Assembly (NCBI GenBank): GCA_028286615.1
Contig: JAQBRG010000004.1
Location: 1 to 34,479, forward strand
Origin: Parcubacteria group bacterium
GTDB lineage: Bacteria; Patescibacteriota; Minisyncoccia; Phycocordibacterales; Phycocordibacteraceae
Direction of reading: 5' to 3'
Length of the DNA stretch: 34,479 nt
Shown in pieces: positions 1 to 33,225 of the stretch; the first letter of the stretch is position 1; each line of letters begins with the position of its first letter. The position numbers and the translations under genes were made by a program. The notes under the pieces are model-generated. The model did not search any database and had not been told where the DNA came from. It saw only the letters and a program-made list of their open reading frames with translations.

Positions 1-640
<640 letters not shown>

Positions 641-16240: not shown

Positions 16241-16531
16241 ATGCAAACAACCATCACTATTAAGACGGATAAAAAGCTACGGGATGCAGCAAAGAAAACT
16301 GCTGCAGCTCTTGGTATTCCTCTAACCACTGTGATAAACGCACAGCTACGAGAATTCGTTCGCGCCCAGCGTTTTGAGATATCCCTCACGCCTCGCCCAG
16401 GGAAAATCGCAGAGTGGAAGAAAATGAGCGATTACGCAAATGCGCATCCTGAAAGCGAGACAGCATTGCGAACCCCAGAAGAGGTTCAGAAATACTTTAG
16501 AAGCTTAATTCGAACAACTCGTAAGAAGTAA
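16241..16531 (+). CDS. RelB/DinJ-like antitoxin (RHH)
   Basis: TTITIKTDKKLRDAAKKTAAALGIPLTTVINAQLREFV; directly upstream of a toxin. Confidence 0.8.
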   Translation: MQTTITIKTDKKLRDAAKKTAAALGIPLTTVINAQLREFVRAQRFEISLTPRPGKIAEWKKMSDYANAHPESETALRTPEEVQKYFRSLIRTTRKK

Positions 16532-16795
16532 ATGGTTCTTCTCACCTCTAAACAATTTGATAAGAAGTTGTTACGGGTACCGTGGAATATTAGACGCGCT
16601 TATTTAGCCCGAATTCATCTTTTTCTTATCGACCCTCAGAATTCTGTTCTCCATAATCATCCGCTCCAAGGAACCTATAGAGGCACGCGAAGTATCAATA
16701 TAACTGGAGATTATCGTCTTATATTTGAACAATTAGGGAACGACACTATACGTCTCTTAGAAATAGACACGCATCACAATCTATACGGGACCTAA
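16532..16795 (+). CDS. RelE/YafQ family mRNA interferase toxin
   Basis: SKQFDKKL, HNHPLQG, RSINITGDYRLIF, IDTHHNLYG. Confidence 0.9.
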   Translation: MVLLTSKQFDKKLLRVPWNIRRAYLARIHLFLIDPQNSVLHNHPLQGTYRGTRSINITGDYRLIFEQLGNDTIRLLEIDTHHNLYGT

Positions 16796-22585: not shown

Positions 22586-23149
22586 TCAAAGCCCAGAGGC
22601 AACGATGCCTCGATTAATACGTCCTACGATATCTCGGCGTTCCTCAGGAGAGAGCGCGAGTGCTTCTGGCTTGTACCCTTCCCCAGCAAGAACAGGGCCC
22701 GCATCAAGACCAAGCACGTTTAACACGCGGAGAGCAGCAATACATTCAGCAGCATCTTGTTCCTCAGGAGAGAGAGATGGAAGTGCGATAAGAAGTCCGC
22801 GCACGATATCAAAAAGAATAGGGTCCGTCTGCTCCCCGTGCACCAGGCGAAGCAAGAGTCCCGCGATACGTCCAGCACGTAAACGAACTTCGGGAGCTAG
22901 AGATGCGAAATGATTCTCAACGAGAACCGCGCCAGACAATCTCCATCCATCTTTTCCGCGAAGAAGTATAACGTCAGACTCTGAGAATGTTTGGAGTGCG
23001 TGAGCAAGTTTTGAGCCAGGCTTTCTAAGGCCTTCTGCGCGAGCGCGAACTAACCCGAGGTCTGGTGTTAAAAGAAATACGAGCACACCAGCCTCGCGCA
23101 CCGAAGCGCGTCCAAGTACTAGTGCTCTTGTTGCGTAGTTATGCCGCAT
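22586..23149 (-). CDS. recO: DNA repair protein RecO (short CPR-type)
   Basis: [12 protein letters not shown]...[25 protein letters not shown] fold; LNVLG in the helical domain; start overlaps the ileS end. Confidence 0.85.
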
Positions 23150-26100
23150 CGCGCACGAGCGAGAAGCGCACGGAACCTGTAGAAAGTTCTGCGCTGTATA
23201 CGCCATCTTCGCGCTTTTCGACCTTAACCACGTCTCTAGGCGAGAACCCTTCTGTCTTGCGCGCTTCTGCAACAGCTCGCTGGAATGCACGCTCGTCTCC
23301 TTCGGCAACAAGAGTTGGCGTGAGTTCTGTATCAAGCACCATCTCTGCCGCGTTCTGTTTGATTTCTTTTACGTTCACCTCGTCTGCGAGAATTGCAGCA
23401 AGTTCTGAAGGAAGAGTTCCTGGTATGGAGAGAGACGCAAGAGGTTGGCGTACTTTTATAACAGCCTTCTGACGAAGCATGAGTGCGCCTGACACAAGTT
23501 CACGCACCTTCGCCATGTCGGTGATTAGCGCATCTTCTTTCTTTTGTGCACCAAGAAGATTCCCAACGAATGAAGTCTTTACTTCAGGCCAGGATGCAAG
23601 ATGTACGCTTTCTGGATCATGAGACTCTTTTACAAGTTGGTATACGTTTTCCGCAATGAATGGAGCAAATGGAGCAAGCAAGAGTGCTGAGGTACGGAGT
23701 GTCTCCTGGAGTGTTGTTAATGCTGCTGCATCACCCGCGCGAGCGCGGTCTCGGATACTTCGTACGTACCACTGCGACAGGTCTTCAATTAAGCGGCCGA
23801 TTGCACGCGTTGCGTCATAGAGCTGGTACGCATCCAACGCTTCAGTTACTTCCCTCACAGCAAGGTTCGTGCGTGCTTTCATCCACGTATCAATTATCTG
23901 TTCCTCTCCCTTGCTCTTCCCTTCTGTCTTAAAGAGTTCGTAGAACTTCGCACTGTTATCAAGCCATGAGATTACACGCGCTGCTTCTTTAACAGTCTTC
24001 TCATCAAAACTCTTTGAGTCCCCTGGCTGATTAACGCTGTACATCCAGTAGCGAAGAGTATCAACGCCGTACTGCTCAATTGCTACCCATGGGTCTATTA
24101 CGTTGCCCTTAGACTTCGACATCTTCTGACCGTTTCCATCAAGCAAGTGTCCGAGGCAAATAACGTTCTTGTACGGCGTACCACGCTCCATAAGAGTGCC
24201 AACCGCTTGGAGGGTGTAGAACCAGCCACGTGTTTGGTCTATAGCTTCTGAAATAAAGTCTGCTGGGTATCCAGAGTGTTCAACCTCTCTCTTGTGCTCG
24301 AAAGGATAATGGTCCTGCGCAAACGGCATGGCACCTGAGTCAAACCAGACGTCCATAACTTCAGATACACGTTTAAGTTCTGTTCCGGAATCAGATACAA
24401 GTACTACGTCATCTATGTAAGGACGATGCAGATCGAGTTCGTAATCGTCATTGTGTGGAAGAGGAACGAATTCAAATTCAAGGAAGCTTGCGTACCCGGG
24501 CGTAAAGCTATCGAGTACCAATCTTCCCTCCTTCTTATCGTTTCCTTTTGTAAAAGCCAGGAAAGATTCTTGTGCTACGCCGTGCGATACCACCAATATC
24601 TTTGCATCTTTGTTTGCTGCGTCTACTTCATAGGCAAAAGATGCAAAACGATTCTTAGCGTCAAAATAGCTTTCGCCTCCAGGAAGCTTCTGGTCGTATG
24701 CTGACAGCTTACCGTTACGGTATTCAACAAGCTTTGCGAAAGGCTGCTCATCAAGTTCTCCAAAGTTAAGTTCGCCGAGTCTTTCATCAACCACGATTGA
24801 GTTCTTGGGCAGACCGAGTACTTCTGCGGTTATCTCGGCAGTCTCTTTCGCGCGACGAAATGGCGAAGAATACACTAGAGTTATTCCCTTGCCCTTTAAA
24901 TTTTCTGCAGAAGCACGTGCCTGTTCCTTCCCCGCTTCAGTTAATCCGTACTTATCAAAGTCACAGCAACTAAGCACGTTCTTTATATTATGCTCTGCTT
25001 CTCCGTGCCGCATTACGAGAAATGTATTTCCGTTTCGCTTGATGCGAGCTGTGAGTTCTTCAATGGAACCTATTGTTACCCGCTCGGTACCATCGCTGTT
25101 CTGCCACACTGGAAGCGGCGTGCCCCAGTACCTCTCACGGCTAATAGCCCAGTCTTTCGCGTTTGCGAGCCATTCGCCCATACGTCCATCTCGTATATGA
25201 GACGGCTCCCAGTTAACCTTAGCGTTCTCAGCAAGCAAAGTTGGACGTAAATCCTGCATGCGTATGTACCAAGAGTCTCGTGCGTAATAAATGAGAGGAG
25301 TCTTGCAGCGCCAACAGAACGGGTAGCTGTGGAGATAGTTCTCCTTTGCGAAGAAGAGTCCACGTTCCTGCAGATCTTTTAAGATATCAACGGCTACGTC
25401 GGCGTCTTTAACAAAGCGTCCTTCAAGAAAGGTTGTGCCCGGAATGAACTTTCCGTCAGGGCCAACAAGGTGCACCTTGGGCAAACCAACCTGCTGTCCG
25501 AGTTCAAAGTCTTCCTGTCCGTACATAACGGCAGTGTGCACGATACCGGTACCGTCTTCTGTTGTTACGAATGACGCAGGATATACGTGAAATGCTTTAT
25601 CGAACTTTGCTTTCTCTGTGTCGTTTGCGAGTTCCTTAGCATATGGATAAAGAGGTTTGTACTCCTTCCCAATTAAAGTGCTGCCGAGAAACTCTTCTTC
25701 AAGAGCCCAGCCTTCTTCAAGAACAGTTGTTGCGCGACTTGTAGCAAGGATGACTTTCTCTCCATCCTTTGCGTATCGTCCGTATGAAATCTTTTCTCCA
25801 ACAGCGAGCCCAACGTTTCCAGGGAGCGTCCAAGGGGTTGTTGTCCACGCAAGGAAGTACGTACCAGGCTCGTCTTTCAGCTCAAACTTCGTTGTGAGAG
25901 AAAGATCTTTTACATCTGCGTATCCTTGTGCAAGTTCGTGTGAGGAGAGTGCGGTACCGCAACGCGCACACCACGGCACCACCTTGTAGTCTTTAAAGAG
26001 ACGTCCGTCGTCTGACACCTTTTTCATGATGTTCCAGACAGACTCCATGTAGTTCTTATCAAACGTAAAGTACGCCTTCTCTTGGTCTACCCAGTACCCA

Positions 26101-26477
26101 ATGCGATCCGTAAATCGAGTCCATTCATCGATGTACTTCATGACGCTCTCACGGCACTTCTTGTTGAAGGCTGCTATGCCGTACACCTCAATGTCTTTCT
26201 TTCCCTTGAAGCCAAGATCTTTCTCAACCTCAAGCTCCACAGGAAGACCGTGCGTGTCCCAGCCAGCACGTCGAGGTACACGATATCCGCGCATGGTCTT
26301 GTATCGAGGAAGCGCGTCCTTAAAAGAGCGTGATTCTATATGGTGTACACCGGGACGGCCGTTAGCTGTTGGAGGACCTTCATAGAATACAAAGTCGCCC
26401 TTAGGAGCCGCCTTCTTAAGCGACTTCTCAAAGATGTGATTCTCTTTCCAAAAAGCCAGTATCTCTTCCTCGGTCAT
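23139..26477 (-). CDS. ileS: isoleucine--tRNA ligase (type 2) with an inserted histidine-phosphatase domain
   Basis: [59 protein letters not shown]; RHGE...SHG insert. Confidence 0.97.
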
Positions 26478-27251: not shown

Positions 27252-28898
27252 TTACATCCTCTCGGGTGTGGGTATCCCAAGCAAACGAAGTCCGTTTGTC
27301 ATTGTGTTAACAAACGCTTCTGCGAGTCGAAGCTTGTATGTTTCATGATCGCCTCCAATTACGCGTTCCTGTGCGTAGAAAGAGTTCCATTCGCTCGCAA
27401 GCTGTGTGAGGTACTGAGCAATAACATGTGGCGCGCTAAGTGCTTCTGCTTTAGCAATAATTCCTGGGAAGCGAGTTATGAGTCTCTCAATGTCGTATGG
27501 AGTTGCCGGAGTACTTTCATCCTTAGACTCAGGTTCTTTTGCAAGAACTGCCTTTGCACGAACGAGGGCATACTGAAGATATGGTCCTGAATCTCCTTCT
27601 AGAGAAAGAGATTTCTCAAAATCAAAAATTATATCTGAGCCAGCTGATTGTTTAAGTATTGAGTATTTAATTGCTCCCATAGCAACTTGCTCAGCAACAA
27701 GTGGGTCTTCGTTACGCTCTAGCGTCTTTTCAATAACATCCTTTATGAGTGAGGCGGCGGTAACAACGTTTCCTTCTCGAGAGGACATCTTTCCGCTTGA
27801 TAGACGGAGGAAGCCGTGCGGAACGTGCGTAGTCTTTGCTGCGAGCGCTGGCGCGATATCTTCAAGCGCAGCAAGGAATACTTGGAAGTGCCCTATCTGC
27901 TCTGCTGCTGTAATAATTATAGAAACATCTGATGGCCAGCGTTCTTCTTTAAGGAATGCGAGTCCTATATCTTTTGCTTCGTATGTAGGAGTACCACGAG
28001 AGGTTATGAACACGAGCGTATGCAGGCCTTTATTCTCTCCTTTATAGATAATTGCTCCTTCGCTCTCTTCAAAGATTCCCTTTGCAAGGCCTTCGCGTAC
28101 TTTTTCAGTACCGATGCCAGCAGTCTCGCTTTCGAAGAACAGGTAATCAAAATGCGTATCAAGAAGTCTGTAGAGATCTTTGAAGGCATCTATAGAGACA
28201 TCGCGTCCCTTGCGCCACAGCTCCATGAGTTCGTGGTCTGTGCCTTCGTATATGGCAGTGTTAAGTGCGTCTATTTCTGCTTTTATCTTTTCAGACTCTT
28301 CGTATGCACGAGAACCGTGCGCATACGCCTTTCCTATTTCTTCAGCTGTTGCTGGTTCAGATATGCCAGCATCTCGAAGTCCCCACAAGGCTTTGGCCAC
28401 ATGCGGACCCACATCGCCTCCGTATGAGTCGCGGCACACATTGGCTCCCTGGTATTCAGTTATGCGTGCAAGAGATTCTCCAATGATGGTGCTCATCAAG
28501 TGACCGATGTGCATTTCTTTAAACGCGTTCGTGTTTGAGAACTCAATGATTACTCGCTTGCCTTCGTGCAGAGTTCCCTTTCCCCATCCTTCTACATCTA
28601 ATACAGCTCGTTCAATTACTTCTGTAATTGCATGGGGCGCGAGCGTTATGTTAACGAACCCAGGACCAGCGGGCGTAACTGAGGTTGCGCTGTCTCCTAG
28701 AGTTTCTTTTATGCGCGCGGCTAAATCTTCCGCTAACTCTCGAGGATTCTTTCCAAGTTGTTTAGCAGCTGCCATAGCAGCATTCGTAGCGAAGTCTCCG
28801 TGTACCAACTCTCCTGGCCACTCAACAACAAAGGGTGCCTCGCCTGCTCCCAGGTCTTCGAGGGCCTTTTGTACTGCTTCACGAATCTGTCTCTCCAT
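27252..28898 (-). CDS. argS: arginine--tRNA ligase
   Basis: GDFATN, GPGFVN, MHIGHL, KMSSREG, GDSGPYLQYA. Confidence 0.98.
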   Translation of the reverse strand: MERQIREAVQKALEDLGAGEAPFVVEWPGELVHGDFATNAAMAAAKQLGKNPRELAEDLAARIKETLGDSATSVTPAGPGFVNITLAPHAITEVIERAVLDVEGWGKGTLHEGKRVIIEFSNTNAFKEMHIGHLMSTIIGESLARITEYQGANVCRDSYGGDVGPHVAKALWGLRDAGISEPATAEEIGKAYAHGSRAYEESEKIKAEIDALNTAIYEGTDHELMELWRKGRDVSIDAFKDLYRLLDTHFDYLFFESETAGIGTEKVREGLAKGIFEESEGAIIYKGENKGLHTLVFITSRGTPTYEAKDIGLAFLKEERWPSDVSIIITAAEQIGHFQVFLAALEDIAPALAAKTTHVPHGFLRLSSGKMSSREGNVVTAASLIKDVIEKTLERNEDPLVAEQVAMGAIKYSILKQSAGSDIIFDFEKSLSLEGDSGPYLQYALVRAKAVLAKEPESKDESTPATPYDIERLITRFPGIIAKAEALSAPHVIAQYLTQLASEWNSFYAQERVIGGDHETYKLRLAEAFVNTMTNGLRLLGIPTPERM

Positions 28899-28916
28899 GG
28901 GGCGAGTGTAGCAAGA

Positions 28917-28946
28917 AAACCCGCCACCTCGAAGGGTGGCGGGTTT
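28917..28946. terminator. intrinsic terminator
   Basis: AAACCCGCCACC-tcgaag-GGTGGCGGGTTT. Confidence 0.85.
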
Positions 28947-28955
28947 ATCTTCTAA

Positions 28956-29057
28956 CTACATATTCTGAGCAAAGGCGAACATGAGGCTTCCGGCGATAAC
29001 AATTCCGACCGCCATCACGACCGCTGATTCAAGTGCTGCTTGTGCAAGTTTGGTCAT
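28956..29057 (-). CDS. 33-aa small membrane protein
   Basis: MTKLAQAALESAVVMAVGIVIAGSLMFAFAQNM; single TM; flanked by terminators. Confidence 0.55.
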   Translation of the reverse strand: MTKLAQAALESAVVMAVGIVIAGSLMFAFAQNM

Positions 29058-29146
29058 ACGCGAGAAGTGAGCTGATAGTGACTGTCCCAAATAATATACG
29101 AATAGATACATGAGGAGTCTGTGAGCGTATGAGAATGGAAACAATA

Positions 29147-29170
29147 AAGGGCGGTCAGTTGACCGCCCTT
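29147..29170. terminator. terminator hairpin
   Basis: AAGGGCGGTCA-gt-TGACCGCCCTT. Confidence 0.75.
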
Positions 29171-29173
29171 AGG

Positions 29174-29506
29174 CTACCAAGAACGAAGTTCACTATGTTT
29201 ATTACAAGGAACAACATACCCGCTAAAGCCCGTCTCCCTCTTCCATTCCTGTAAAAGATAGGGGTGCACATCTTTTTTAGACACAGGCACATGTACATCA
29301 CAGCACGGGCAAAGTATATAAGCGAAATAGTATTTCATGCCTTTGTAACCACAATCTTTTACCCATTTTCGTAACTGAATGTCTGAACGCTGCACTTGCA
29401 ACTTAGCGCCACACCCTCGACCAAGAATGCTAGTTGTACACAACAACTCGATCGTCCATGACTCCGGAATTTCTGTAGGAATTACACCTACGTTGATTAA
29501 CTTCAT
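29174..29506 (-). CDS. Cys-rich hypothetical protein (putative zinc ribbon)
   Basis: C..GCGA.L.V...D....CPCC pattern; ATGA overlap with the upstream gene. Confidence 0.65.
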   Translation of the reverse strand: MKLINVGVIPTEIPESWTIELLCTTSILGRGCGAKLQVQRSDIQLRKWVKDCGYKGMKYYFAYILCPCCDVHVPVSKKDVHPYLLQEWKRETGFSGYVVPCNKHSELRSW

Positions 29507-29730
29507 TTCTTTTCTCCAAACATGATTGCCATGGCAGCCCGAAGACCGCCTCGCTTATACGCTTCGTCTGCTTTAACTAGAATCGCCTTACCTTCTGAAC
29601 CTTCTCTCCAAGCGTGCGTGCGTGCCTGTACTCTTTGTAGGATTGCCTCAGCTTTTAATGAGACAGCAGGAAGTGTATCCAACGTATAGGTTCCTGGAGG
29701 AATGGGAGGTCTTTCGCGATCTTCATCCAT
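29503..29730 (-). CDS. hypothetical protein (75 aa) directly downstream of the SAM-I riboswitch
   Basis: AAAGGAG SD before MDEDRE; translationally coupled to the next gene. Confidence 0.6.
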   Translation of the reverse strand: MDEDRERPPIPPGTYTLDTLPAVSLKAEAILQRVQARTHAWREGSEGKAILVKADEAYKRGGLRAAMAIMFGEKK

Positions 29731-29753
29731 ACTTAGCTCCTTTGCCATAGAAA

Positions 29754-29792
29754 GAACAAAACGGCCACTCCGAAGAGGTGGCCGTTTTGTTC
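29754..29792 (-). terminator. riboswitch expression-platform terminator
   Basis: GAACAAAACGGCCAC...GTGGCCGTTTTGTTC followed by TTTCT. Confidence 0.85.
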
Positions 29793-29799
29793 GGTTTTT

Positions 29800-29897
29800 A
29801 CATCTTCCCCGGAGGGCTGGAATTCGCACCTTACCGATTGGCAGGTTGCGGATAGAGTATTGGGCCAGAACCCTTTGCACCTCTATGCTCTTGATGT
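29800..29897 (-). ncRNA. SAM-I family riboswitch aptamer (variant P2)
   Basis: ACAUCAAGAG...AGGGUUCUGGCCCAAU...GCAACCUGCC..GGUAAGGUGCGAAUUCCAG.CCC..GGGGAAGAUGU: P1 ACAUC/GAUGU, CUGG/CCAG pseudoknot, P3 GCAACC/GGUGC. Confidence 0.85.
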
Positions 29898-30326
29898 CTT
29901 GTCTGGAGTTAGTGTATCACGTAATTGCTTAGCACGTTTAGCACCCAACAAAACACTGTAGTTAGGGTGGTTCTTAAAATCCTTGAGATCCCAGACTATT
30001 GGATATCCAACTTCCTTTGATAGATGAATTACTTTGTCAGAACCGATATACACCCCCATGTGCGCACCATAGGATTCTTCTTTGCTATTAAAGAACAGAA
30101 TATCCAAAGGTTCGAGGACCTCTACCCTTCGTGTATAAGTCTCATCTTCCCAAAGATTACTTGAGCGCAGATCTGGCACTTTGTATCCAAAATATTTGAG
30201 AAGTTCGTATGCAAAGTACTGGCAGTTAGCTCCTTTCTCTAATCCTTCACAGTTTCCACTGCCAGGATACCGAGACCCGTCGTAGAAAGAATTGAAGAAG
30301 TGTGCCGGGATGCAGAGGGTATCCAT
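29883..30326 (-). CDS. NlpC/P60-like cysteine hydrolase
   Basis: ANCQYF, LDILFF, HMGVYIG, VIHLS. Confidence 0.75.
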   Translation of the reverse strand: MDTLCIPAHFFNSFYDGSRYPGSGNCEGLEKGANCQYFAYELLKYFGYKVPDLRSSNLWEDETYTRRVEVLEPLDILFFNSKEESYGAHMGVYIGSDKVIHLSKEVGYPIVWDLKDFKNHPNYSVLLGAKRAKQLRDTLTPDKTSRA

Positions 30327-30332
30327 GAGGGC

Positions 30333-30371
30333 ATGGTATCAAATTACCAAGGTTTGGGACGATGTTGGAAC
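30333..30371 (-). repeat. cassette-junction repeat copy A
   Basis: TGGGACGATGTTGGAAC (30355-30371) plus ATGGTATCAAATT (30333-30345). Confidence 0.85.
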
Positions 30372-31010
30372 CTATTTTTGCCGCACAGCAAGTATGTTCT
30401 TTCCTGATTCGTTCGGAAAAGCCCACGCTCGCTCAAACTCATCCATTGATACACGTTGATTTTCAGCTGGGGGTAATCCCGGATTGTGTAGGAGCAAAGT
30501 TTCGTCTTCATGTCCCCAAACCACTACCGAGTGTGGCAAATATCCTTCGACATCCTTCAATCTCGCGGAATTAATATTACAAATCACTAAATAACCATCA
30601 TCTATAAACTTCTTTAGGTCACTCAGGTCCGGTATCCTCACCCGAACATCCACATACTTCAAAAGCTTTTTGCTCAATTTCTGTTCCTGCTCCAGACTTG
30701 TGTGCTTGTCTTGTGCCTCGGCAATTTCATTCCCGAACATTTCTTGCAGATAGCCTTTCCCCTCCAGGGAAAACTTCTCATAGTCAAAGAGTTCAATATC
30801 TACCACTTCATATCCACTCTCTGAAAGCCAGATCATAGCAGCAATAGGCCACGTCCACTGCCCCTCCACCTTCGCCGTTATACGCTCCAGTTCCTTCCAA
30901 GAATAATCCTTTTCGCGGTTAAAGAATTTCAAGACCATCCTCAGGGCAGCCTGGAAACAATGAGTATTGTCTTCTGTGTTTGCGTAAAAGGGTACCTGCG
31001 AATCTTTCAT
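30372..31010 (-). CDS. peptidase C39-like papain-fold protein
   Basis: VPFYAN, HCFQAALRMVL, HSVVVWG, LHNPG. Confidence 0.8.
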   Translation of the reverse strand: MKDSQVPFYANTEDNTHCFQAALRMVLKFFNREKDYSWKELERITAKVEGQWTWPIAAMIWLSESGYEVVDIELFDYEKFSLEGKGYLQEMFGNEIAEAQDKHTSLEQEQKLSKKLLKYVDVRVRIPDLSDLKKFIDDGYLVICNINSARLKDVEGYLPHSVVVWGHEDETLLLHNPGLPPAENQRVSMDEFERAWAFPNESGKNILAVRQK

Positions 31011-31016
31011 ACTTAA

Positions 31017-31056
31017 ATGGTACCAAATTGCTGGCAATCTGGGACGATGTTGGAAC
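31017..31056 (-). repeat. cassette-junction repeat copy B
   Basis: TGGGACGATGTTGGAAC (31040-31056) plus ATGGTACCAAATT (31017-31029). Confidence 0.85.
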
Positions 31057-31168
31057 TCTTGTGTCGCTAGCCAGGTCCTCACCCCGTATTGGGTACTAGA
31101 GTTTTGGATGTAGAACGCGCGGCCACTTGGACCGCGCGATTGTTAAAAGAGGTGTATTCGCTTCAGAG

Positions 31169-31354
31169 TTATCCGGTGTAGCGAACTCGTTCGGCAACAG
31201 CCTCCATCACCTCAGATGGTCGGAATTGGCGTTCGATGATCGGGAGATCAGGATTAAGTACACCGGATGACAATTGGCTCGACGCTCTGACGACAGCTGC
31301 GGCTGCGTCAAGATTGTCTGCCAGACGTTGGCTGTCCATACTTTTCAGGTCCAT
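31169..31354 (-). CDS. small hypothetical protein (61 aa)
   Basis: GAGGAA SD-like sequence; GC hairpin downstream (about 31116-31138). Confidence 0.4.
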   Translation of the reverse strand: MDLKSMDSQRLADNLDAAAAVVRASSQLSSGVLNPDLPIIERQFRPSEVMEAVAERVRYTG

Positions 31355-31477
31355 GCTAGTTCCTCACTTACGTCCAGGTTGGTCTGGGTGGAAACTCTAG
31401 CAAATAACTTCAGTTCCTTCAATCTACGGCCTTTGGTGTAAAGAATGCTTGCGATATGAGACGACGTTAGAACCTTT

Positions 31478-31906
31478 CTAACTATAGAGCTGGAACTCCT
31501 CCGTAAGGATTCTAATCGCTTCGGTCGCCCCATACAGAGTGGCGCCCAGATATTCAAAATCGCTTTCTTGTTTTCCAGCCATAGAATCATTGAGTTTATC
31601 GTCGTGTCGGGTATCGAGCATTTCTCTAGGAAAATCAACAAGTAGGAGATCTTCCATAGTTCTGGCTTTCCCTATTAGGTCAGCGATTTTTGCAGAGCTC
31701 CCTTTCTTTATTACAAAACCAAACCGCGCAATGCCGGCATGCTTAATACCAGATCCGTCTTTAAGTACGCTGCGTCCCATAAGTTCGCCGTCCTTATTTG
31801 CACCAATGGCTATTGCCATGTGTCCAAGCACATTCATTGCTTGCCATGGCTCTAATGAATCAGAAATGATAGCAATAATTTTTCTGGCCTTAAAGTCGTA
31901 CGTCAT
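31478..31906 (-). CDS. DUF2000-like protein (PTH2 fold)
   Basis: KIIAII...LEPWQAMNVLGHMAIAIG, D.SG..H.GI, VDFPREM, YLG..LYG....I..LT. Confidence 0.75.
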   Translation of the reverse strand: MTYDFKARKIIAIISDSLEPWQAMNVLGHMAIAIGANKDGELMGRSVLKDGSGIKHAGIARFGFVIKKGSSAKIADLIGKARTMEDLLLVDFPREMLDTRHDDKLNDSMAGKQESDFEYLGATLYGATEAIRILTEEFQLYS

Positions 31907-31926
31907 CTACAGATAGTATCAAAGAT

Positions 31927-31950
31927 TGCTGGGAGACTAGGGATCGAACT
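31927..31950 (-). pseudogene. 3' fragment of a tRNA-Gln (att-like remnant)
   Basis: AGTTCGATCCCTAGTCTCCCAGCA = T-loop, 3' T-stem, acceptor strand ending A72, G73 discriminator; no 5' half. Confidence 0.7.
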
Positions 31951-31959
31951 CCCTCAGAC

Positions 31960-33225
31960 CTATGCAAAACTCTCAGGAATAGGATGTGCTGCTGCTAGCT
32001 CCTGTACTTTCAAATGCGCAGCTTTAACCGTTGCATCGTCTCGCTTCGTTAGGATTTCAATCATGAGCTCTGCAACCTGCACGCATTCTTCTTTCTTAAA
32101 TCCACGCGTTGTCATAGCAGGTGTACCAAAACGAATACCAGAAGGATCCATTGGCTTACGCGTATCGTCAGCAATTGAGTTCTTGTTAAGCGTTATGCCA
32201 GCTTCGTCGAGAAGCTTTTCTGCTTCCCCTCCTGAGATACCAAACGAAGTCCATGCGTCAGCAAGGATGAGATGGTTGTCCGTGCCACCAGTTAGAAGAC
32301 GTGCACCGTGTGCCTTGAACACTTCGGCCATAGCAGCAGCGTTCGCAACAGTCTGGTGTGCATAATCTTTGAACGAAGGGCGGAGTGCTTCTCCAAACGA
32401 AATTGCTTTAGCAGCAATCTGGTGCATGTGCGGACCGCCCTGAAGTCCAGGGAAGAGTGCCTTGTCTATCTTCTTCGCAACTTCTTCGCTCTCTCGCGTA
32501 AGGATCATGCCGCCACGTGGACCTCGAAGCGTCTTGTGCGTGGTTGTGGTCATAACATCGAAGCCGTGATCAAAGGGGCTCTTCGCTGCGCCTCCTGCGA
32601 TGAGTCCTGCAATGTGCGCTACGTCAGCAACGGCATATGCACCAACCTCTTTAGCGATATCTGAGATCTTCTGCCACTCAAGTTCCCTGGGGTATGCAGA
32701 GAAGCCAGCCAGAATAACCTTCGGCTTTTCTTTAAGGGCCGTCTCTCGAAGCGCGTCGTAGTCTATCTCCCCTGTCTCAACATCTTTCATCTTGTACCTG
32801 ATGAAGTTGAAGATCTTGCTGATGTACGTAACTGGGTGTCCGTGCGTAAGATGTCCTCCATGCGAGAGGTCCATACCTAGAATGGTGTCTCCTGGCTCCA
32901 TAAGTGCCATATAGAGCGCGATGTTTGCGTTTGCGCCTCCTAGTGGCTGTACGTTTGCGTGCGATGCGTTAAAGAGCTTTTTCGCGCGATCTTGAGCGAT
33001 GCGTTCAACCTGGTCTGTGTATTCCTGTCCTCCGTAATACCGCTTGCCTGGGTACCCTTCTGAGTACTTGTTCGTAAGCGCACTGGCCATTGCTTCACGT
33101 ACTGCGCTTGATACGTAGTTCTCTGATGGGATAAGCTCAAGTCCTTCCGCTTGGCGCTTTTCTTCTCCCGTAAGAGTTGCAAACACCTCTGCGTCCTCTT
33201 TCTGTACGTGTGGGTACCAATCCAT
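31960..33225 (-). CDS. glyA: serine hydroxymethyltransferase
   Basis: LIPSENY, NKYSEGYPGKRYYGG, GGHLTHG, TTTTHKTLRGPRGG. Confidence 0.98.
   Translation of the reverse strand: MDWYPHVQKEDAEVFATLTGEEKRQAEGLELIPSENYVSSAVREAMASALTNKYSEGYPGKRYYGGQEYTDQVERIAQDRAKKLFNASHANVQPLGGANANIALYMALMEPGDTILGMDLSHGGHLTHGHPVTYISKIFNFIRYKMKDVETGEIDYDALRETALKEKPKVILAGFSAYPRELEWQKISDIAKEVGAYAVADVAHIAGLIAGGAAKSPFDHGFDVMTTTTHKTLRGPRGGMILTRESEEVAKKIDKALFPGLQGGPHMHQIAAKAISFGEALRPSFKDYAHQTVANAAAMAEVFKAHGARLLTGGTDNHLILADAWTSFGISGGEAEKLLDEAGITLNKNSIADDTRKPMDPSGIRFGTPAMTTRGFKKEECVQVAELMIEILTKRDDATVKAAHLKVQELAAAHPIPESFA

Follow-up and report, generated by a model that had tools for sequence, protein, structure and literature searches.

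The locus and its gene content

We have analysed a 34,479-nt window (contig JAQBRG010000004.1, assembly GCA_028286615.1) from a Parcubacteria group bacterium and describe here a leader RNA that resembles S-adenosylmethionine (SAM) riboswitches of the SAM-I type and precedes two small open reading frames (ORFs), orf75 and orf110. Genomes are given G numbers (the genome of the window is G000) and loci L numbers; gene calls in relatives are mechanical ORFs. The window otherwise carries housekeeping genes, for tRNA synthetases, RecA, FtsK, elongation factor P, ribosomal proteins and serine hydroxymethyltransferase (SHMT). The leader lies in an accessory insert between glyA, the SHMT gene, and a small membrane ORF with argS (Table 1). 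Besides the riboswitch, orf75 and orf110, the insert contains genes for a DUF2000 protein, a C39-like peptidase and an NlpC/P60-like protein, the last of which was found in none of the 120 other genomes of the genus. Both SHMT and argS genes were present in the fetched stretch at 8 of 11 same-genus loci (L056-L066) and are adjacent in seven of these eight; in L058 the two are kept apart by an ORF related to the 62-aa membrane ORF. The GC content of the insert (0.435-0.48) is just slightly under that of the flanks. The aptamer overlaps the end of the NlpC/P60 ORF, as an earlier note made from the sequence letters had said, with the TAG stop (29885-29883) inside helix P2a.

Table 1. Positions of the leader, its parts and the neighbouring features in the window
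Feature	Position	Strand	Basis
Accessory insert, ~2.8 kb, between glyA (SHMT) and small membrane ORF with argS	29147..31962	.	Pfam and synteny
NlpC/P60-like ORF, last codons and stop within leader	29883..30326	-	PF00877, 3.8e-5
Extended -10-like element TGATACACT, possible leader promoter	29911..29919	-	sequence reading
SAM-I-type aptamer, four-way junction P1-P4 and pseudoknot, P2 kink-turn-less	29797..29900	-	RF00162 match
P1, ACAUC / GAUGU, 5 pairs	29897-29893 / 29804-29800	-	sequence
J1/2, AAGAG	29892-29888	-	sequence
P2 overall, P2b loop UUCUGG	29852..29886	-	sequence and RF00162 alignment
P2a, AUAGAG / CUCUAU	29886-29881 / 29857-29852	-	sequence
P2 internal loop, GUGCAAA / AAUA (7+4 nt)	29880-29874 / 29861-29858	-	replaces kink-turn
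P2b, GGG / CCC	29873-29871 / 29864-29862	-	sequence
Pseudoknot, CUGG / CCAG	29868-29865 / 29820-29817	-	P2 loop with J3/4
P3, GCAACC... / ...GGUGC	29850-29825	-	sequence
P4, 3 pairs	29816-29808	-	sequence
Intrinsic terminator, 17 pairs (lower stem of 15, a bulge and 2 more), UUCG loop, UUUCU tail	29792-29754, tail to 29749	-	terminator scan (16 pairs counted) and folds
Ribosome-binding site (RBS) of orf75, AAGGAG	29742-29737	-	sequence
orf75, 75 aa	29503..29730	-	ORF; in-frame upstream ATG 29748 would give 81 aa
orf110, 110 aa, four-Cys zinc-ribbon-like; start overlaps orf75 stop (ATGA)	29174..29506	-	ORF
Terminator-like hairpin closing the two-gene operon, 10 pairs (7 G-C), weak T tail	29147..29170	-	terminator scan

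A SAM-I-type aptamer without a kink-turn

The Rfam SAM-I model RF00162 matched the window over model positions 1-108 with 35.8 bits (E 1.3e-6, permissive filters), and this is its sole match in the genome (E 6.5e-7), which comprises 756,930 bases in 8 contigs and is 94.67% complete. The leader folds at -62.6 kcal/mol, better than 200 of 200 shuffles (z -3.46). Since the match is full-length and unique in the genome and the fold is better than all shuffles, we regard the feature as real, beyond chance. In the clan competition of cmscan two weaker matches to models of the same clan were dropped and SAM-I was kept; the covariance-model check proposed in the earlier note has thus come out for SAM-I, with a score below the Rfam gathering score of 44.4 bits. 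The shortfall is due chiefly to a poor fit of the kink-turn columns and of the outer three pairs of P1, and owing to it a scan of the window at curated thresholds misses the aptamer and reports only the 5′ end of 23S rRNA. A covariance model built here without P4 and P1 (R1) scores the window, which belongs to its seed, at 89.7 bits.

The conserved SAM-I core is present (AUC/GAU in P1, AAGAG, GCAACC/GGUGC and AAUUCC), as judged from the model alignment, the fold and the columns invariant in 32 relatives. Bases of this core contact SAM in published structures. Deviations from the conserved core columns of the Rfam alignment are confined to the P2 loop and the outer three pairs of P1, and every element previously named as part of an intact core was recovered in its place. 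The lack of a canonical kink-turn in P2 was likewise confirmed: the 3-nt bulge with tandem G-A/A-G pairs of SAM-I is not present, the UGAA columns of the model read AUAC and GUGCAAA stands opposite AAUA. On sequence and alignment criteria, the window RNA is a genuine SAM-I-clan aptamer of a kink-turn-less subclass.

With the SAM-I riboswitches (RF00162; Thermoanaerobacter tengcongensis metF and Bacillus subtilis leaders) the leader shares the P1-P4 junction, AAGAG, GCAACC/GGUGC, AAUUCC in J3/4, the pseudoknot between the P2 loop and J3/4 and, by prediction, a terminator-based OFF platform. It differs from them in having the 7+4-nt loop instead of the kink-turn, a P4 of three pairs, a P1 of five pairs, a score below the cut-off and downstream genes that are not methionine (Met), cysteine (Cys) or SAM genes. 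Among the features that mark RF00162 members it thus has the four-way junction and the pseudoknot and lacks the curated score and the kink-turn.

SAM-IV (RF00634), from the same clan, also has an element other than a kink-turn between P2a and P2b and keeps the first pseudoknot (PK-1); it lacks P4 and carries P5 and a second pseudoknot, PK-2, according to PMC6890682. The window RNA differs in having P4 and no P5, its terminator follows directly after P1, and the clan competition favours SAM-I; a SAM-IV identity was therefore rejected. In the same paper, SAM-I/IV (RF01725) is described with an undivided P2 and no PK-1; this identity was rejected as well, since P2 of the window RNA is split by an internal loop and its PK-1 is backed by covariation. 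In an engineered SAM-I riboswitch with a pk-turn (Daldrop, Masquida and Lilley 2013; PMC3672288) a non-kink-turn element also lets P2 bend enough for SAM binding, with 1000-fold weaker affinity (dissociation constant 300 µM vs 0.54 µM). That RNA is artificial, whereas the loop in the window is natural, has another sequence and is conserved in many lineages.

A literature search, with most subscription journals and supplementary alignments outside its scope, gave no description of natural kink-turn-less SAM-I riboswitches or of SAM riboswitches in the candidate phyla radiation (CPR). While the SAM-I architecture itself is known, a natural, conserved replacement of the kink-turn within its frame is new and, if the assignment is true, offers a test case for P2 bending without a kink-turn in this architecture.

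The subclass across genomes

At E<=1, RF00162 matches were found in 15 of 61 related genomes; 11 of the 61 have one above the cut-off. Most of them have the canonical kink-turn and lie upstream of metK; for seven same-genus kink-turn leaders this position was confirmed by PF02773 matches just downstream. The odd P2 loop is common to five matches in this set (the window, L012, L013, L016 and L017). An exact pattern for the kink-turn-less loop found 34 loci in the one-genome-per-species contigs of a public collection. By their record titles, 24 are from CPR (Saccharibacteria, Paceibacterota, Minisyncoccia, Uhrbacteria and others), seven are labelled 'uncultured Gammaproteobacteria', one 'Bacillota' and two 'uncultured bacterium'. 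The R1 search of 151 genomes of the order added more members, some with features outside the search pattern: a UGCGAA loop in L073, AUGAUAAA in L080 and a different J1/2 in L077. The pattern had no match in 2.9 million viral contigs, which rules against a phage link of the kink-turn-less RNA.

The internal loop of the subclass has the consensus 5′ N-U-G-Y-W-A-A, 3′ R-A-N-N, where the conservation of UGYWAA on the 5′ side is in part imposed by the search pattern. We aligned 32 distinct kink-turn-less aptamers with MAFFT and considered 23 pairs from P2a, P2b, the pseudoknot and P3. Standard pairs fill 94.9% of 725 cells; sliding the partner by 1-3 columns lowers this to 28-44%. The aptamers have a covariation score of 0.367, vs 0.04-0.09 in the slid controls, and 0 of 500 shuffles attain it. 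All cells of P2a are paired (100%), with five of its six pairs varying on both sides. The outer pair of the pseudoknot is C-G in 15-16 aptamers, U-A in six, A-U in four and non-standard in 6-7. P1 is short throughout, with 4-6 pairs, of which the fourth is C-G in 12 aptamers, U-A in 12 and U-G in 8.

Nine of the 35 scanned variant loci (nine of 36 counting the window) reach the Rfam gathering score. Since the other 27 of 36 kink-turn-less aptamers fall under the cut-off, SAM regulation, if these RNAs are what they appear to be, is under-annotated in CPR genomes. As judged from these sequence matches, the subclass recurs across CPR/Patescibacteria, and it very likely senses SAM because its members also head metA and metK.

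Genes behind the subclass

Among the 34 pattern-scan loci, eight aptamers precede Met or SAM genes and 25 precede other genes, while L044, cut, gives no information. The gene is metA in L021 (the same as L012), L022 and L024, and metK or metK-like in L023, L029, L034, L041 and L049 (the L049 locus is truncated, and no long ORF was called in L029); the kink-turn-less aptamer of L013 also heads metK. The scanned first genes are without a Pfam family in L026, L027, L028, L030, L031, L033, L036, L038, L040, L046, L047, L048, L051, L052 and L054, the exceptions being a Bro-N protein in L035 and a PduO-type adenosyltransferase in L053.

In the order sample (151 genomes, 27 with a match, 33 matches; aptamer classes set by eye from the sequences) two of ten kink-turn-less aptamers lead Met/SAM genes, metA in L070 and metK in L075. 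The eight others lead the window pair, four proteins without a family, an ABC ATPase, one unclear gene and a MoxR-like ATPase with metK 4 kb beyond. The remaining 23 aptamers lead Met/SAM genes in 17 cases (14 metK and three Cys/Met enzymes dependent on pyridoxal phosphate, PLP) and other genes in six (L003, L085, L089, L094, L095 and L103). When metK, metA and the PLP Cys/Met enzymes are taken as one group, genes outside it follow 8/10 of the kink-turn-less vs 6/23 of the remaining aptamers, with a Fisher p of 0.007 that overstates the contrast because relatives are not independent.

A zinc-ribbon family, designated A4 (CxxC ... C-x5-WH, then a coiled C-terminal part), stands behind SAM aptamers in several CPR lineages (L031, L039, which is L067:4173-4565, L048/L050 and L051). 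When the family was sought through its protein in 401 genomes, two finds were made, in G280 and G217. The G280 locus (L102:1112-2178) has three tandem A4 paralogs behind one aptamer (RF00162 29.8 bits, R1 E 4.4e-4), which carries an insertion of ~40 nt in the P2 loop and a long one in P3; for the G217 member no convincing aptamer was found (R1 E 0.64, wrong side). Of 28 riboswitch-led proteins, 27 had no match in PADLOC or NCBIfam beyond weak PglZ/mad8 scraps; the exception is PduO in L053. A count of Cys motifs gave 2 of 26 vs 13 of 382 in the background, an uninformative comparison in which two L102 entries are misframed.

Several loci deserve mention in their own right. A gene resembling PduO-type ATP:cob(I)alamin adenosyltransferases comes first after the SAM-I aptamers of separate lineages: L053:5403-6002 (-) (PF01923 2.3e-27, TIGR00636 1.8e-31), L025 (a cut copy) and L103:1461-1967 (-) (PF01923 1.7e-21). 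The aptamers of L053 and L025 are kink-turn-less and that of L103 is of the kink-turn type; metK was not found in the L053 and L025 genomes, of unknown completeness, and is present in G217 (L103). The PduO-type family transfers an adenosyl group from ATP, which is the chemistry of SAM synthase, and a role of the PduO-like protein in SAM metabolism is worth testing. In L085:6-1413 (-) a 129-aa ORF and a gene for a C5 cytosine DNA methylase (PF00145, 5.8e-102) lie behind a kink-turn SAM-I aptamer; SAM may control a DNA methyltransferase there. A LOOT RNA (RF03000, 62.3 bits) lies at L028:7666-7780, ~230 nt past the riboswitch-led gene, and group I introns are found at L052:4914-5164 (inside 16S rRNA) and L102:438-674.

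The leader is shared between unrelated surroundings

A DNA search of the genus with positions 27252-31082 found argS everywhere, at 63-70% identity, and besides argS only two matching pieces, one in G106 (88% over 29905-29745) and one in G009 (75%, about the same stretch). In a three-way alignment, the window and G106 agree at 138 of 164 leader columns (84%; 88% by BLAST), with 66 consecutive identical bases. Outside the leader, only 14 of 46 upstream and 6 of 20 downstream columns agree; the argS identity between the two genomes is ~70%. The leader of G009 (L012), 67-75% identical to the window, precedes metA (PF04204, 6.9e-120), and that of G106 (L039/L067) precedes a gene for a 138-aa zinc-ribbon protein. 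Upstream in G106 are genes for a homing-endonuclease-repeat protein and ParB, and downstream are those for a membrane protein and a C5 DNA methylase. All three leaders have a homologous aptamer and terminator and the same type of P2 loop, while the sequences on either side are unrelated. Two more contigs (3,376 and 240 nt) from a soil metagenome run, X1, from which the window DNA may itself stem, match only 29751-29905, with 11 and 5 substitutions, and diverge at both ends. In one of them an RBS is followed by ATG CCA ATC, resembling the metA start MPVKIP, in a loose end of only 30 letters.

Since homology stops at the leader and the flanks are unrelated, the leader acts as a discrete module before different genes. 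A recombination junction may lie near 29905-29920, which would fit the last NlpC/P60 codons reading into the module. The earlier note had proposed to see which gene follows this RNA in relatives, and had offered as one explanation that ORFans captured the switch of a lost metK. The closest leader turns out to precede another zinc-ribbon gene (G106) and the next one metA (G009). An origin from a lost metK does not agree with this: same-genus metK leaders have the canonical kink-turn, whereas the closest leaders are kink-turn-less and precede a zinc-ribbon gene or metA.

Similar arrangements were seen elsewhere. The trimmed aptamers of L035 (2677-3748) and L041 are identical and their terminator regions nearly so; the L041 leader stands before metK and the L035 leader before a Bro-N protein gene with a Dam-type methylase gene upstream, which looks like an exchanged downstream gene. 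In L032, L042 and L047 an aptamer occupies one site, between clpP and the RNase Y gene, while the ORFs between leader and rny vary (65, 64 and 213 aa in L032, 72 aa in L042 and 167 aa in L047).

Terminator, alternative pairing and promoter

The strong terminator that had been noted behind the aptamer is borne out, its segment folding at -23.6 kcal/mol. We folded each leader up to the terminator loop, a state corresponding to the transcript before the terminator 3′ strand exists. For the window this predicts an antiterminator of GAAGA.UG with CA.UCUUC (-9.2 kcal/mol). This predicted pairing is the antiterminator of GAAGAUGU with ACCUCUUC that had been suggested earlier, and it reaches only the terminator top. 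The same type of alternative pairing, made of other sequences, is predicted in four relatives: GGGA.GAUG/CAUC.UCCC in L039, AGAAGGG/UCCUUCU in L012, CGAAGGG/CCCUUCG in L022 and UUAAGGG/UCCUUGA in L044. Because complementarity survives changes on both strands, a real alternative helix is supported.

The leader may have its own promoter: the G106 leader has a sequence similar to the promoter-like element of the window (TGtTAtcCT) at equal distance. Two metatranscriptome runs from the study that produced X1 contained nothing matching 28900-30400.

Downstream genes

The statement that the genes behind the switch are not metK or Met/Cys genes holds, in that neither orf75, for which no relative was found, nor the Cys-rich, zinc-ribbon-like orf110 matched a family. 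Among 5.8 billion proteins orf75 matched only itself, called there as the 81-aa version from the upstream ATG. Pfam, PHROG, PADLOC and NCBIfam yielded nothing for it below E 0.1, and the ESM Atlas had no usable neighbour. AlphaFold without an alignment predicts three helices (pLDDT, predicted local distance difference test, 71.5).

For orf110, a word-index search returned the protein alone, and HMMER against 1.84 billion representatives found nine relatives at E<=1e-3, the best of 118 aa with 55% and 44% identity. A nine-row alignment shows a four-Cys pattern in which Cys66, Pro67 and Cys69 do not vary, and the family has the motifs GCGAxLxV and DCGYKGM in common. No Pfam, PADLOC or NCBIfam family matched, and a weak match was found in 1 of 120 other genomes of the genus. 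AlphaFold predicts a beta-rich fold with a C-terminal helix (pLDDT 77.7). The Foldseek comparison proposed earlier gave no solved structure at E<=0.001 (best 0.25), and the best VIA-align Z was 3.3. Uncharacterised tailed-phage proteins came out nearest by predicted structure (BFVD E 9e-4, TM 0.55/0.63) and by language model (Atlas 0.95). Against phrog_2834, phage proteins of unknown function, orf110 scored E 0.0087 and its G078 relative 8.5e-6. Sequence relatives were absent from the viral contigs searched and tblastn had no match in 50,697 phage records; a phage link of orf110, resting on predicted-structure and language-model neighbours only, was therefore set aside. Likewise rejected was a single family of orf110 and A4 (hhalign probability 4.3%). 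A complex prediction for the orf75 and orf110 proteins gave no verdict either way (score 0.00).

Two relatives of orf110 could be viewed in context: L019, in G078, and L069, a metagenome locus found with a four-row orf110 alignment and flanked by secY and adk/map. Both are without a SAM aptamer (0/2; Rfam at E<=0.01, R1 with filters off), and therefore capture by module exchange is favoured. The earlier note had left the choice between a new SAM-responsive function and capture; the orf110 relatives without a switch speak for capture, and the position of the subclass mostly before unknown genes keeps a new function in consideration.

SAM supply in the genome and the genus

In G000, 94.67% complete, metK was found neither with the PF02773 profile nor by tblastn with the MetK of three relatives, with MetA and with a PLP enzyme (best E 0.03), and metA was not found either. 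In the genus sample metK is present in 23 of 121 genomes (19 of 93 of high quality) and metA in 1 of 121. No metK was found, at 91% completeness, in G106 and G280, where a SAM leader precedes zinc-ribbon genes. The genome of the window thus appears unable to make SAM itself, and most of the genus appears to rely on imported SAM, with incomplete genomes limiting what metK absence can mean. With both metK and metA undetected, the switch would gauge how much scavenged SAM is available. The sole metA of the genus sample (G009:C1:9011-9901; L012:1665-2498) has one in-frame TGA within the family match and an ORF of 277 aa vs 306 aa (L022) and 307 aa (L024); it may be broken, or the TGA may be read through.

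Interpretation

We consider it reasonably probable that the leader is a working SAM OFF-switch module that was recombined onto accessory genes. When SAM is bound, P1 and P4 would hold, the 17-pair terminator would form and transcription would stop at ~29750. Under SAM scarcity, the top of the terminator 5′ strand would instead be paired to P4 and P1 through their 3′ strands, and some transcripts would read through into orf75 and orf110. Leader and terminator would form a self-contained module inside the insert, recombined before two accessory genes, an ORFan and a gene for a zinc-ribbon protein from a sparse family. SAM binding by the window RNA is suggested by the metK and metA genes behind other members and by pocket columns that fit SAM-I. 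From the sequence we also infer the OFF logic, the origin of the switch-gene pairing by exchange of what lies behind the leader, and the production of both ORFs as proteins.

Several observations weigh against a working switch. The aptamer scores below the Rfam cut-off and its P1 is short. In the SAM-I aptamer studied in PMC3672288, disruption of the kink-turn abolishes SAM binding; since loss or replacement of this element harms SAM-I binding, the affinity of the window RNA could be low or nil. The predicted antiterminator spans merely the apical 7-8 nt of a terminator of about -24 kcal/mol, and because the lower 13-15 pairs could still form, termination might be constitutive. A scan of 28800-30500 with the sigma-70 consensus returned no site, so that of the promoter claimed earlier the -10-like element stands and a consensus site does not. 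As orf75 has no relatives, its status as a gene is backed solely by the RBS and the coupled stop-start. Finally, the high leader identity with G106 could reflect recent transfer and not selection, and thus a young relic is conceivable.

A dedicated regulon, where orf75 and orf110 belong to a CPR response to SAM starvation in which small, fast-evolving and often zinc-ribbon proteins are turned on at low host-derived SAM and the tie of switch to genes is due to selection, not accident, is in our judgement possible and on the unlikely side. It would account for the preponderance of non-methionine genes behind kink-turn-less aptamers (eight of ten in the order sample, with the non-independence of relatives, and 25 of 34 in the pattern scan), for the recurrence of A4 behind SAM aptamers, including the G280 case found through the protein, and for the retention of the switch in G000, G106 and G280 without detectable metK. 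It sits poorly with the orf110 relatives L069 and L019 that have no SAM aptamer, with the lack of a detectable relation between orf110 and A4, with an orf75 that has no relative and with the G217 member of A4 that has no convincing aptamer; none of the proteins has a known function.

A wider conjecture, which we hold doubtful, is that kink-turn-less SAM-I aptamers are a portable CPR sensor tying fast-evolving small, often zinc-ribbon proteins, orf75 and orf110 included, to scavenged SAM. With metK missing from most of these cells, falling SAM would then signal host loss, or SAM depletion in a phage attack, and trigger a starvation or defence-like programme, and the altered P2 would tune the SAM range.

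That the leader is inactive, having lost SAM binding with the kink-turn or being a leftover of a replaced metA, with the terminator attenuating constitutively, seems quite improbable. The low score, the short P1, the weak predicted antiterminator and the harm of kink-turn loss in a model aptamer (PMC3672288) would agree with it, as would the closest leader with a known gene, which precedes metA, and the X1 contig where a near-identical leader is followed by a metA-like start in its 30-letter loose end. Yet the loop is no private defect, being common to at least 36 loci with covariation around it and the pseudoknot kept, and the same loop heads intact metA and metK. Moreover, the conserved core columns misfit only in the P2 loop and in the outer three pairs of P1, and the leader is far better conserved than its flanks. 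A changed ligand, with the altered P2 going along with S-adenosylhomocysteine or another adenosyl or sulfonium metabolite, would suit the odd peripheral architecture and the mostly non-methionine downstream genes, but is very hard to sustain, as the change is peripheral, the P1, P3 and J1/2 pocket columns match the SAM-I consensus and subclass members head metK and metA.

Readable clues to what CPR dark-matter genes do are few, and riboswitches are one of them. If the module is a working switch, the combination of a SAM switch, small proteins of unknown function and no metK points to genes linked to the scavenging of host cofactors, and such genes are testable in cultivable Saccharibacteria systems.

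Other features of the window

An isoleucyl-tRNA synthetase-like ORF of 1112 aa at 23142-26477 (-) has its catalytic domain split by a histidine-phosphatase domain (PF00300, 6.2e-31, residues 487-650). At 16241-16792 (+) a 96-aa ORF is followed by an 87-aa ParE/YafQ-like toxin ORF, likely a toxin-antitoxin pair. The 5′ end of 23S rRNA at 1-626 (-) carries a ~55-nt insertion relative to the Rfam model near position 228.

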